From contig JAKFXX010000005.1 of the NCBI GenBank assembly GCA_021731145.1, positions 18,821 to 82,820 of the forward strand: 64,000 nt of DNA. Direction: 5' to 3'. The notes under the pieces were generated by a model. The model saw only the letters and a program-made list of their open reading frames with translations, was not told the DNA's origin and made no database searches. Source of the stretch: Gammaproteobacteria bacterium. GTDB lineage: Bacteria; Pseudomonadota; Gammaproteobacteria; Ga0077554; Ga007554. The first letter of the stretch is position 1; each line of letters begins with the position of its first letter. The position numbers and the translations under genes are program-made. Of the stretch, positions 4,834 through 24,179 are shown in pieces.

Positions 4834-6912
4834 TTAGGCCGCGCTCTTGACATGATCAAGAGCCACTCTATTATTTGATGGTGAATATTGGTGGGACAAT
4901 CTGATAAGACCGGAAACATCCATTATCAGAGCTACGGTCCCATCCCCGAGAATTGTCGCACCGGATACCCCGTCCATTCTTTTGAAGTTTGTTTCCAGAC
5001 TTTTAATTACAACCTGCTGCTGCCCCAATAAATCATCAACGAATATTCCAGCTCTCTTTCCGTCGCCTTCTACGACGACAAGAAGTCCACCTGACAATTT
5101 TTTGTTTTTTGGAATGATATTGAATACTTCGTGAAGCCTGACGATAGGTATATATTCATTCCTAAGCTTGTAGACCTCAGCTCTTCCGGCAATGATATTT
5201 ACATTTTCTTCGTCAATCTGAAGCGACTCTATGATTGATACCAATGGGGTTATATATGTCTCATCACCAACACTGACAAGCTGCCCATCAAGTATTGCCA
5301 GCGTTAAAGGAAGGCGTACTGTAAAAGTCGTTCCTTTACCTTCAAAGGATGACACTTCTATTTTACCGCCAAGATCATTAATATTTCTTCGTACAACATC
5401 CATCCCAACACCACGACCGGAAACATCGCTGACTATTTCTGCGGTTGAAAATCCTGGCAAGAATATTAAATCGTTAATTTGTTCTTCGGACAGGGATTCA
5501 TCATCTTTGATGAGTCCTCGATCTTTTGCCTTTTTCGTAATTTTTTCCTTATTAAGGCCTCCCCCATCGTCTCGTATTTCTATAATAATGTTTCCACCCT
5601 TATGATAGGCATTAAGATGGAGTAACCCGGTTGATGGCTTACCTGCCGCCTTTCTATCGTGCGGCAGCTCAATTCCATGATCAATGGAGTTGCGCACCAA
5701 ATGTACAAGAGGGTCTCCTATCTTTTCCATTACCGTCTTGTCCATCTCCGTGCTTTCTCCAGACATCTTTAACTCTATTTCTTTACCAAGCTTCTTGCTA
5801 AGGTCATGAACCATGCGAGGGAAACGATTAAATGCAAAACTGATGGGCAACATGCGAATACGCATAACGCTTTCCTGGAGCTCTCTTGTATTACGCTCCA
5901 GTTGTGACAGCCCATCTCGCAACTTCATTATCTGGCTGTTATCAAAATCCTTTCCTAACTGGGCCAGCATGGATTGAATGATGACCAGCTCTCCGACCAT
6001 GTTGATAAGGTCATCAACCTTATCTATACTTACTCTAATAGAGCTATTTTCCACCGAACTTGAAGACACCCTCCTATCGGAAGAAAGCCTTTTTTCTTCA
6101 ATTTTAGGAAGATCATGAGAATGATCGTCTTTATTTTTTATGCCATCATAATGATCAGGATTATCATCATTACTTGCTATTAATTCTTTGTCTGATTCAT
6201 TTAATATTTGTGTTATTTTTAAATCACATTCGCCATCAACCCAATCGAATATTTCTGATATTTTTTCACTTGAAACATCTGTTTTTATAGATATTTTCCA
6301 TGAAAAATAGCACTCTTCTGGATTCATATCATTGAACCCTGTCATCTTTGAAGAGTCTACTTTTACTGACATATCGCCTAAAGAACTTAGCTCCCCGAAC
6401 ATCCTCACAGGGTCGTTCCCTGTTATGAGCATATTCACATACGGAATGAATTCTATATCCCATCCTTTACCGTGTTCTTTTTCTACTTTGGAATGTTGAT
6501 CAACGCATGTCCCGCCTTCTTTTTTATCAGAAAGGAGATTTTCTAGTTTTTTTTGCATATCAACCACTCTGGGAGCATCCACAGGAGATCCATCACGCGC
6601 CGATATAAGCAGGTCACGCAGACAATCCACTGACAGCAATAACAGGTTAACAGCCTCTTCGGTTACCTTTCTGCGTTGATCACGCATCTCATCAAGCAAT
6701 GTTTCCATTACATGAGTAAAACCTGCCACACTGGAGAATCCAAAGGTTGCCGCCCCTCCTTTTATGGAGTGCGCCGCGCGAAATATGGCATTCACCACAT
6801 CGACATCCGCCGTGCCAACATCAAGATTAAGGAGGCCTGACTCCATAACCCCAAGTCCTTCGAAGCTTTCTTCAAAGAACGTCTGGTGAAATTGAGACAT
6901 ATCTATCGACAT
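4834..6912 (-). CDS. cheA: chemotaxis histidine kinase CheA
   Basis: HPt domain (AAHSIKGGAATFGF), long acidic linker, dimerisation/HATPase region (GRGVGMDVV...GKGTTFTVRLPLTLAI), CheW-like C-terminal domain. Start set at MSIDMSQFHQTFFEE, 5 nt after the cheY stop. Confidence 0.9.
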   Translation of the reverse strand: MSIDMSQFHQTFFEESFEGLGVMESGLLNLDVGTADVDVVNAIFRAAHSIKGGAATFGFSSVAGFTHVMETLLDEMRDQRRKVTEEAVNLLLLSVDCLRDLLISARDGSPVDAPRVVDMQKKLENLLSDKKEGGTCVDQHSKVEKEHGKGWDIEFIPYVNMLITGNDPVRMFGELSSLGDMSVKVDSSKMTGFNDMNPEECYFSWKISIKTDVSSEKISEIFDWVDGECDLKITQILNESDKELIASNDDNPDHYDGIKNKDDHSHDLPKIEEKRLSSDRRVSSSSVENSSIRVSIDKVDDLINMVGELVIIQSMLAQLGKDFDNSQIMKLRDGLSQLERNTRELQESVMRIRMLPISFAFNRFPRMVHDLSKKLGKEIELKMSGESTEMDKTVMEKIGDPLVHLVRNSIDHGIELPHDRKAAGKPSTGLLHLNAYHKGGNIIIEIRDDGGGLNKEKITKKAKDRGLIKDDESLSEEQINDLIFLPGFSTAEIVSDVSGRGVGMDVVRRNINDLGGKIEVSSFEGKGTTFTVRLPLTLAILDGQLVSVGDETYITPLVSIIESLQIDEENVNIIAGRAEVYKLRNEYIPIVRLHEVFNIIPKNKKLSGGLLVVVEGDGKRAGIFVDDLLGQQQVVIKSLETNFKRMDGVSGATILGDGTVALIMDVSGLIRLSHQYSPSNNRVALDHVKSAA

Positions 6913-19180: not shown

Positions 19181-19237
19181 GCGTTTCCCCTCTTATCGAA
19201 CTGTGTGTATGCCTATGGCAAATGTTTTACTAAAGAA

Positions 19238-19456
19238 TCATCTCGTAGCCGACAACTGACGAGTCAAAAAATCACTGGTGCTGCGTAACTTACCCAACAG
19301 GCTATCCAATGCCGTGAATTGATCCCGATAACGTTTTTCAATGTCGTCAAGACGCCGGTTCAAAACATCGCGCCTGTCGCCAAGTGTCTGGATGCTGCTA
19401 TTAATGCCACCCGCCCAGCTGGAAATTGAGCCGGAGCTGCCTAAAAGTTTGCCCAT
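19238..19456 (-). pseudogene. relic C-terminal fragment of a second, diverged fliD copy
   Basis: SIQTLGDRRDVLNRRLDDIEKRYRDQFTALDSLLGKLRSTSDFLTRQLS aligns with the FliD C-terminus SLKSLDENRQRLTDRLADTEKRYRAQFTALDMIISRMTTASNFLTQQLA (~50% identity). Confidence 0.5.
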
Positions 19457-19629
19457 AAGTTTATCCAGTTGATATGCGTAACCTTGCGAATAACTGACTG
19501 TGCCGTGGCTGCTGAAACTGTAGCGATCGCACCATCGAAGAGCCCCAAAATCAGCTTGTAGGCGACGGCGGATTCTACGCCGACATCAACCCCAAACTTG
19601 TTGTATGTGCTCAATACGCTGTTGGCCAT
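19441..19629 (-). pseudogene. relic N-terminal fragment of a second, diverged fliS copy, fused upstream of the fliD' fragment
   Basis: YNKFGVDVGVESAVAYKLILGLFDGAIATVSAA ... THINWIN aligns with the FliS N-terminus YSQVGAQTGVAYASPHRLIQMLLDGALDKIALA...SHISWAI. Confidence 0.45.
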
Positions 19630-23849: not shown

Positions 23850-24179
23850 CTATGCTGACAAGCCACGCGCCAACGCCATCACTTCTTCGCAAGGAATCTG
23901 CCGAATAACCTCATGGGTTTCCATATCAATGACTTTGACCACCACCCGGCCACTACTTTCGTCGATGCTGAATTGCATATCGCGTCGATAATTTTGAATG
24001 AACCGGTTTAAACTGCTGACCACTCCTTTCAAAGAAACATCGGCCTGTCCGTCCTGCTCACCATAGATTTGTTGTGGTAAAGGACCCTGCAACCCATTTT
24101 CCGAGTCCGCGCTTAAACCACTTGCTGCCTGTCCCGCAGGCTGGGACACTGCGACCATTTCAGAGATGTCAGGAACCAT
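23850..24179 (-). CDS. second FlaG paralogue
   Basis: 109 aa. SGRVVVKVIDMETHEVIRQIPCEEVMAL matches the FlaG C-terminal motif. Lies downstream of the decayed fliC copy. Confidence 0.7.
   Translation of the reverse strand: MVPDISEMVAVSQPAGQAASGLSADSENGLQGPLPQQIYGEQDGQADVSLKGVVSSLNRFIQNYRRDMQFSIDESSGRVVVKVIDMETHEVIRQIPCEEVMALARGLSA

Follow-up and report, generated by a model that had tools for sequence, protein, structure and literature searches.

In the 64,000-nucleotide (nt) stretch of gammaproteobacterial DNA analyzed here (the window), a 392-nt segment lies between the working flagellar genes fliD and fliS. It encodes the N-terminus of a FliS-like protein (fliS') followed by the C-terminus of a FliD-like protein (fliD'). 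The segment is very probably the right-hand scar left when a heterologous module replaced part of the filament locus. We lean towards an explanation that joins such a scar to a live mini-gene of 72 codons within fliD'. This open reading frame (ORF) carries a clear signature of purifying selection, with polymorphism that was possibly imported, and it does not have the features of a pseudogene; the case for its functioning as a gene today is evenly balanced. More tentatively, the remnant may have turned into a new small gene, whose product, a free helix selected for binding FliT, would buffer or regulate this resident chaperone after replacement of the cap protein.

Composition of the segment

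Three-frame translation placed the two halves in different frames, as ORFs that overlap by 16 nt. The frame 19504-19238 encodes GTVSYSQGYAYQ...SATR*; the second frame of the segment reads ...SFSSHGTVSYSQGYAYQLDKLMGKLLGSSG...FLTRQLSATR*, which is a FliD C-terminus. Matched by the Pfam profile FliD_C (5.8e-9, positions 158-235 of 236), fliD' is devoid of the FliD_N helix and the central head domains. Because only the last 88 codons are kept (72 in the ORF), its product cannot be a cap protein. Judged by its domains, the 72-codon ORF is functionally neither a member of the FliD family, having no N-terminal or head domains, nor a FliS.

The chimeric arrangement of a fliS N-terminus and a fliD C-terminus between fliD and fliS had been proposed in a sequence-only reading of the window, and translation, BLASTP and Pfam searches bore it out. 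That reading put the identity of each half to the functional gene at about 50%. The figure holds for fliD', which is 53% identical to the C-terminal 90 residues of the adjacent FliD (48/90, E=5e-28), but not for fliS', which reaches only 29% against the adjacent FliS (17/58, E=1e-8).

The fliS' ORF (19629-19441, 62 amino acids (aa)) continues out of frame past 19503 to a stop at 19441. Its residues 44-55 (19441-19500, 'SVIRKVTHINW') are encoded by fliD-derived DNA in the wrong frame and were aligned to 'DIAQKGSHISW' of FliS, apparently a fortuitous similarity that raises the score. The genuine part of about 42 codons aligns at the extreme N-terminus of FliS from many other genomes (44-50% identity, E about 1e-5). 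It gave no match to the Pfam family FliS (PF02561) at E<=0.1, lacks the full four-helix bundle of FliS (about 120-150 aa) and falls outside the FliS family.

The same structure occurs base for base in six separate Logan assemblies, and variant forms of it are present in further independent NCBI metagenome-assembled genomes (MAGs) and Logan/ENA contigs; the segment is therefore not an assembly artefact. The assemblies are metagenome-derived, and strain mixtures can yield chimeric joins. Nevertheless, the probability that assembly or binning fused the flagellar loci of two strains into one contig is negligible, given that the junction is identical in the six Logan assemblies, recurs in 8-10% divergent form at a related locus (L077) and has related counterparts in independent NCBI MAGs.

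Resident remnants and probable heterologous module

Relatives were collected by a FliS-anchored genome scan, which returned 75 loci, and by protein look-ups, which added further ones; loci are designated by L numbers. The sister lineages are L003, L004 and L097 (FliS 70-76% identical to that of the window). The window's own clade comprises L077, L001/L089-L092, L104/L105, L093, L002 and L094 (FliS 83-92%). The sequence-only reading had recommended a comparison of synteny with relatives. The sister lineages have one fliC-flaG-fliD-fliS unit and no remnants, and all members of the window's clade have the same working fliD (90-94% identical) together with remnants, which appear in four junction states.

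The C-terminus encoded by fliD' is 76-80% identical to that of intact FliD from the three sister lineages over 84 aa, compared with 56% to the adjacent FliD. In a neighbor-joining tree of the last 84 FliD codons, the fliD' fragments and the intact FliD of L003, L004 and L097 form a clade with 100% bootstrap support, and the adjacent working FliDs form a separate clade with the same support. The divergence of fliD' from L003 and L004 also matches that of the backbone (FliS 74-76%, FlgL 75% and FleQ 79-80% identity), in contrast to the working FliD and FlaG, which are only 49% and 37-41% identical to their counterparts there. In addition, the DNA of fliD' and fliS is collinear with fliD-fliS of L003 and L004. 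In view of the tree, the backbone-like divergence and the collinearity, fliD' is the 3' end of the resident fliD itself, and the newcomers are the working genes. The fliS' stub shares 47-50% identity with FliS of more distant genomes and only 36-38% with the resident type. Since fliS' is thus closer to distant FliS and fliD' closer to sister FliD, the two units are heterologous.

Searches for close relatives of fliD' have limited reach. No intact FliD more than 80% identical to it was found among the loci and proteins recovered, where sampling is thin; the word-indexed search with fliD' is insensitive, collected only five candidates and is unreliable as a negative for intact close relatives. 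A metagenome scan with the 93-aa relic returned 10 loci (best 62%), all apparently full-length or contig-cut FliD, and no new alleles. A representative search with the 72-aa ORF product gave 1267 matches, many of them 67-150 aa long, among which contig-cut FliD and true mini-proteins are indistinguishable.

The heterologous module contains a sigma28 promoter, fliC, flaG, fliD and the fliS' stub. Its alignment with L002 has sharp ends at 23863 and 19503, the latter exactly at the fliS'/fliD' junction. A search at the two ends of the module found neither att-like nor direct repeats, only the expected paralogous matches of the fliC 3' end, the promoter and the fliD 3' end. No donor lineage was found for the module, and the C-terminus of the working FliD had no outside match above 64%. 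A recent sweep of the module was considered, as it has diverged less than fliS-fliT, and was rejected: flgK and fleQ are equally conserved, and fliS, fliT and the tPilZ gene are faster-evolving and mosaic.

The resident unit survives as its sigma28 promoter, a gutted fliC, an intact flaG2, the fliD 3' end and fliS. The resident and module promoters lie in two paralogous blocks of 62 nt with 73% identity to each other. In the gutted fliC, the N-terminal stretch of about 27 codons is degraded, and the 30 C-terminal codons are 77% identical to the C-terminus of the working FliC; L002 has a fliC remnant that is similar to, though not identical with, this one. The resident flaG2 shows dN/dS (the ratio of nonsynonymous to synonymous substitution rates) of 0.27-0.43, in-frame indels only and near-invariance of its C-terminal 60 residues (window, L090, L002). 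By these sequence measures, it is probably still functional and driven by the orphaned resident sigma28 promoter. The sequence-only reading had linked the segment to a fliC'-flaG' relic. The link stands insofar as both belong to the same resident unit; the two ends are split by the heterologous module and do not record a simple duplication. Its further suggestion of a deletion between two fliD-fliS units also holds, but the units are heterologous.

The features of the locus are listed in Table 1. The whole region is a single minus-strand flagellar cluster, in which FliD, FliS, FliT, FlaG and flagellin were all matched in a Pfam search. The position of the tPilZ gene (atypical PilZ, of c-di-GMP receptor type) between fliT and fleQ is kept in most related loci.

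Table 1. Features of the filament locus in the window, in order of transcription.
Feature	Position	Strand	Remarks
flgK	27896-25977	minus	flagellar cluster, first in transcription order
flgL	25973-24765	minus	flagellar cluster
Left-hand resident remains	24708-23850	minus	promoter, gutted fliC and flaG2
Resident sigma28 promoter	24708-24681	minus	ahead of gutted fliC; one mismatch to TAAAG-N15-GCCGATAA
Gutted resident fliC	24426-24252	minus	27 codons of the N-terminus fused to 30 of the C-terminus
flaG2	24179-23850	minus	intact, resident type, 109 aa; second FlaG gene beside module flaG
Heterologous filament module	23863-19503	minus	one collinear 90.6% block with L002:5406-9769
Module sigma28 promoter	23808-23781	minus	one mismatch to TAAAG-N15-GCCGATAA
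fliC, working	23670-22150	minus	module
flaG	22062-21715	minus	module
fliD, working	21693-19672	minus	intact; Pfam
fliS'::fliD' segment	19629-19238	minus	392 nt, between fliD and fliS
fliS' stub	19629-19503	minus	first ~42 codons of module-type fliS, own ATG; pseudogene
Junction microhomology	19503-19514	minus	CAGCAGCCACGG, 9/12 match
fliD'	19504-19238	minus	last 88 codons and stop; resident (orthologous) fliD 3' end
72-codon ORF ('mini-FliD')	19456-19238	minus	inside fliD', internal ATG at 19456
Spacer, fliD' stop to fliS start	19181-19237	minus	57 nt, the length of the fliD-fliS spacer in L004
fliS, resident	19180-18737	minus	intact, 147 aa; Pfam FliS 2.9e-39; dN/dS 0.15-0.16
fliT	18727-18365	minus	120 aa, two genes downstream of 72-codon ORF; Pfam FliT 4.1e-8
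tPilZ gene	18321-17764	minus	between fliT and fleQ
fleQ, fleS, fleR		minus	after tPilZ gene in transcription order

Signature of selection in the 72-codon ORF

Relic alleles were recovered from more than 10 assemblies and comprise four in all, of which three are divergent (window, L077 and L001 type; 18-22 differences per pair). Among these three, the 72-codon ORF has dN/dS of 0.08-0.13 at dS 0.29-0.41. This is lower than in the controls from the same pairs, namely fliS (0.16), fliT (0.16-0.27) and the 3' part of the working fliD (0.26-0.35). The 33 variable sites across the four alleles fall 6/5/22 on the three codon positions (P=9e-5). When 22 random substitutions were simulated in the ORF, they caused a mean of 15 amino-acid changes and introduced a stop in 51% of trials; the observed ORF shows 6-7 amino-acid changes and no stop (P<=5e-5 against the simulation). 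Furthermore, dN between the relic and L003 (0.13) is about the same as that between the intact genes of L003 and L004 (0.11).

The boundaries of the constraint follow those of the ORF. Stops, frameshifts and indels are absent from its 216 nt in every allele. Upstream, L077 has an in-frame TAA nine codons before the ATG, and the L001 remnant has a frameshift and a stop in its 5' part. Downstream, the spacer is 68% identical between the window and L077 with a 10-nt indel, compared with 90% identity and no indel in the adjoining ORF. The start codon is itself derived, through five changes in 6 nt (GCCGAT to ATGGGC) within an otherwise conserved stretch: intact genes read AAA TTG GCC GAT AAA (KLADK), and all relic alleles read AAA CTT ATG GGC AAA (KLMGK). 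Every relic allele is truncated and has both this derived ATGGGC start and a shortened C-terminus, neither of which occurs in any intact FliD.

The fliS' half behaves differently. Between the window and L002 its dN/dS is 0.86, with differences distributed 7/5/4 by codon position, and the contrast between the ORF and this control is significant (Fisher P=0.008). In relatives, fliS' is frameshifted (L002, L094), cut to 10 codons (L001) or deprived of its start (L093). On this sequence evidence it is a pseudogene that drifts neutrally. The word relic, which the sequence-only reading applied to the whole segment, therefore suits the fliS' half but sits poorly with the 72-codon ORF and its signature of purifying selection.

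Junction states and proposed order of events

The four junction states of the clade, A to D, differ in how much of each gene is left. In state A (window, L077), 42 codons of fliS' are joined to 88 codons of fliD'. In state B (the L001 group, L104), 10 codons of fliS' are joined to about 122 of fliD', with a frameshift and stops in the first dozen or so fliD' codons. State C (L002, L094) has at least 52 codons of fliS' with a frameshift, then 231 nt of AT-rich DNA (34% GC), then fliS, and no fliD'. State D (L093) has lost the fliS' start and continues with about 90 nt of unrelated GC-rich DNA and the terminal 120 nt of the sequence seen in state C.

The fliS' of L002 remains FliS-like beyond the window's junction, and the fliD' of L001 reaches about 34 codons further upstream than that of the window. 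Because both extend past the window's join, this junction is secondary. The join reads CAGCAGCCACGG/CACAGTC (the slash marks the join); its left side follows L002 and L094 (CAGCAGCTACGG/TGAATAC in L002), and its right side follows L001 (CATCAGCCGTGG/CACAGTT), where fliD' continues upstream. The 9/12 microhomology here is as expected for an illegitimate deletion, judging by the bases on either side; at junction B the only shared bases are 'AC'. The presence of four junctions in close relatives points to continuing deletion and recombination.

In L002 (9770-10000), L094 (192-422) and L093 (2006-2125), fliD' and the spacer are replaced by an AT-rich stretch that runs up to the fliS ribosome-binding site, and its last 120 nt are 79% conserved between L002 and L093. 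This stretch may be the upstream or promoter region of another fliS, imported with a different fliS allele. The FliS N-terminus of L002 is 79% identical to that of the window and thus more diverged than those of L003 and L004 (84-86%). FliS is called as a 163-aa protein in L093 (2078-2569) and L094 (375-866), 16 residues longer at the N-terminus than the 147-aa form; the replaced region could have introduced a start further upstream, or the extension could be an artefact of gene calling.

The order of events that we infer would begin with a single resident unit, P(sigma28)-fliC-flaG-fliD-fliS-fliT, as is still present in the sister lineages. A heterologous module with its own sigma28 promoter, fliC, flaG, fliD and the 5' part of fliS would have landed inside this unit, gutting the resident fliC and reducing the resident fliD to its 3' end. 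The first join presumably retained more of both genes, with fliS' at 52 codons or more and fliD' at about 122. The fliS'(42)::fliD'(88) junction would then have arisen in the window's lineage through a later deletion at the 12-nt microhomology, and other lineages would have trimmed or replaced the same spot in different ways. The last 72 resident fliD codons would have gained an ATG and kept their frame open under purifying selection.

L002 has a further remnant. A 352-nt AT-rich insert (5054-5405, 35% GC) lies exactly at the boundary between the flaG2 stop and the module, before the module fliC, and is absent from the window and L090. It holds an open 69-codon ORF (about 5146-5352) for a resident-type FliD C-terminal helix that is 47-50% identical to that of the window. 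At the composition of the insert, an open frame of 69 codons is expected less than 1% of the time (an estimate from base composition). A search with the 69-aa product returned only identical copies, in several public sources. If the co-option of the fliD remnant as a gene is real, this ORF is possibly a second case of a FliD C-terminal mini-gene. Campbell-type integration was considered as the origin of this second fliD 3' remnant and found unsupported, the two remnants being too dissimilar and the left one AT-rich.

Weighing of alternative explanations

The sequence-only reading had called the segment the exact footprint of a tandem duplication running from the fliD 3' end to the fliS 5' end, with the copies diverging afterwards. 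Such an event predicts exactly the observed order fliD - fliS'::fliD' - fliS, and the copies are indeed similar. It is nonetheless very improbable, because each copy has closer relatives elsewhere: fliD' falls with the sister orthologues in a fully supported clade that leaves the adjacent fliD outside, and fliS' resembles distant FliS more than it does the neighboring one. Moreover, the junction is secondary, with relatives retaining longer fragments on both sides, and the similar-looking remnant upstream is part of the same resident unit. An exchange of heterologous units would account for these relationships, although the module itself may have come either by horizontal acquisition or from an anciently diverged second unit with differential loss, which weighs against a simple account of replacement.

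A more serious contender, which we consider rather less probable than a scar with a live gene but by no means unlikely, is that the scar is wholly dead. Both halves would then be pseudogenes, and the codon bias of the ORF would have been imported from an unsampled intact resident fliD, or the truncations would be too recent for decay. Several observations support this explanation and count against a functional ORF. Across the junction shared by the window and L077, divergence rises abruptly, being 3.9% in fliS', 10% in the ORF and about 30% in the spacer. This step exactly at the junction shows recombination with donors that are structurally different to the left of it, with crossovers confined to the homologous, relic side. 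An identity mosaic also runs across fliS-fliT between the window and L001 (97% falling to 72%), and, to judge from such patterns, homologous recombination is frequent in the locus. The main caveat is that donors with an intact resident-type fliD could make the low dN/dS inherited rather than current. Furthermore, L002, L094 and L093 have other sequence in place of the ORF, which is therefore dispensable at least in these lineages; the L001 and L104 alleles differ at two sites only, both nonsynonymous; and the remnant elsewhere in L002 has drifted to 35% GC. The Shine-Dalgarno sequence of the ORF is weak (GGA, 9 nt upstream of the ATG), and consensus searches found no sigma54 or sigma28 promoter of its own.

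Other observations count against a dead scar. No intact FliD more than 80% identical to the relic was among the loci and proteins recovered, within the limits of the insensitive word-indexed search. Every recovered allele is truncated, divergent ones included, and all share a start and a C-terminus that no intact gene has. Finally, decay is seen immediately upstream and downstream and never inside the 216 nt. The combination of a scar and a live mini-gene remains the explanation we favor.

Predicted product and expression

The 72-aa product was predicted by AlphaFold2 as a single long helix spanning residues 8-70 (mean predicted local distance difference test score 89.6). In phmmer searches its best PDB match was 5gna_B, the fragment StFliD401-467 of Salmonella FliD crystallized with FliT. 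The ORF aligns to residues 398-463 of full-length StFliD, and its L50 keeps the equivalent of Leu443; by sequence, it covers the equivalent of the FliT-binding segment (StFliD401-467) of FliD. The predicted product of 19456-19238 includes the peptide DVLNRRLDDIEK. Among alleles, amino-acid changes are concentrated in residues 6-24, which precede most of the helix, and residues 25-72 are almost invariant. The variable part overlaps in part a stretch that is disordered in 5GNA (StFliD 401-411, about ORF residues 8-18). FliT binds only the C-terminal helix of Salmonella FliD, and FliD Leu443 matters both for FliT binding and for formation of the cap pentamer (PMC5493677). In the window, fliT lies on the resident side of the junction, and the C-terminal helix of the working FliD shares only about 55% identity with the resident type, with which FliT would have co-evolved.

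The ORF is called as a coding sequence in NCBI and Logan records. Because a terminator scan predicted no terminator on the minus strand between fliD and fliS, it would be co-transcribed with fliD-fliS-fliT. The sigma54 consensus search gave nothing above chance, and nothing on the right strand upstream of fliD, the ORF or fliS. In the window and L077, the stop of the dead fliS' ORF falls at the ATG of the 72-codon ORF or slightly beyond it (16 nt past it in the window), and termination-reinitiation from the fliS' stop onto this ATG is possible. Translation from the new ATG would yield a free 72-residue helix, which, by its sequence and predicted structure, would bind resident FliT. It could buffer FliT, or rival the foreign cap protein in binding FliT. 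Two roles are conceivable for such a helix: an 'antidote' through which the old chaperone stays compatible with a foreign cap, or a new control over flagellar assembly. The segment was also considered as a silent cassette for gene conversion of the fliD 3' end; this was rejected, as it encodes the buried D0 helix and not a variable surface.

Relation to known systems and significance

Two described systems resemble parts of this arrangement. Strains of Pseudomonas aeruginosa with a-type flagellin have an extra fliS-like gene of unknown function, fliS', in the fliD-fliS-fliS'-fleP region (PMC8036289). By description, the window is similar in that a second fliS-like sequence lies near fliS in a fleQ-type polar locus. 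The presence of P. aeruginosa fliS' tracks one flagellin and cap type, and that locus likewise has alternative co-inherited fliC/fliD types. Here, in contrast, fliS' amounts to about 42 codons, is out of frame with what follows and is neutral, and the conserved part comes from fliD. The second system is the complex of the FliD helix with FliT in Salmonella (StFliD401-467/FliT1-94, PDB 5GNA; FliT-FliD fusions 5KRW and 6CH2; PMC5493677), to which the ORF aligns with Leu443 kept and with fliT two genes downstream. The StFliD401-467 fragment alone binds FliT. In Salmonella, however, the helix belongs to the complete cap protein, and release of FliT on FliD export feeds back on FlhDC. In the window it is a putative separate product in a FleQ/sigma54 organism, and binding is proposed by sequence analogy. 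We know of no regulatory role of FliT in FleQ/sigma54 organisms.

Replacement of flagellin and cap genes as a block is well known, as are truncated genes at the joins. Truncated resident genes are common at the edges of exchanged surface-structure cassettes (flagellin H-antigen, O-antigen, capsule) and are normally neutral debris. The locus described here follows this pattern in that a variable module was swapped as a block, remnants persist at the joins and related strains have alternative junctions. It departs from it in that one remnant shows gene-like constraint together with a newly made start codon. A literature search found no description of a constrained remnant that matches a chaperone-binding helix. 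What is unusual is that the remnant matches exactly the chaperone-binding helix of the replaced protein, while the chaperone itself was retained.

Should the ORF prove to be without function, the locus would still provide a clean worked example of how a scar forms and erodes, with four junction states in one clade and one of them at a microhomology. It would also be a warning against taking low dN/dS as proof of current function where a locus recombines. If the ORF is indeed a gene, it would offer a clear case in nature of a small protein that arose from a recombination scar, and would show how co-evolution of chaperone and substrate limits the horizontal exchange of flagellar parts. It would also provide a natural 'FliD401-467-like' peptide for probing FliT in FleQ-type polar flagellates.

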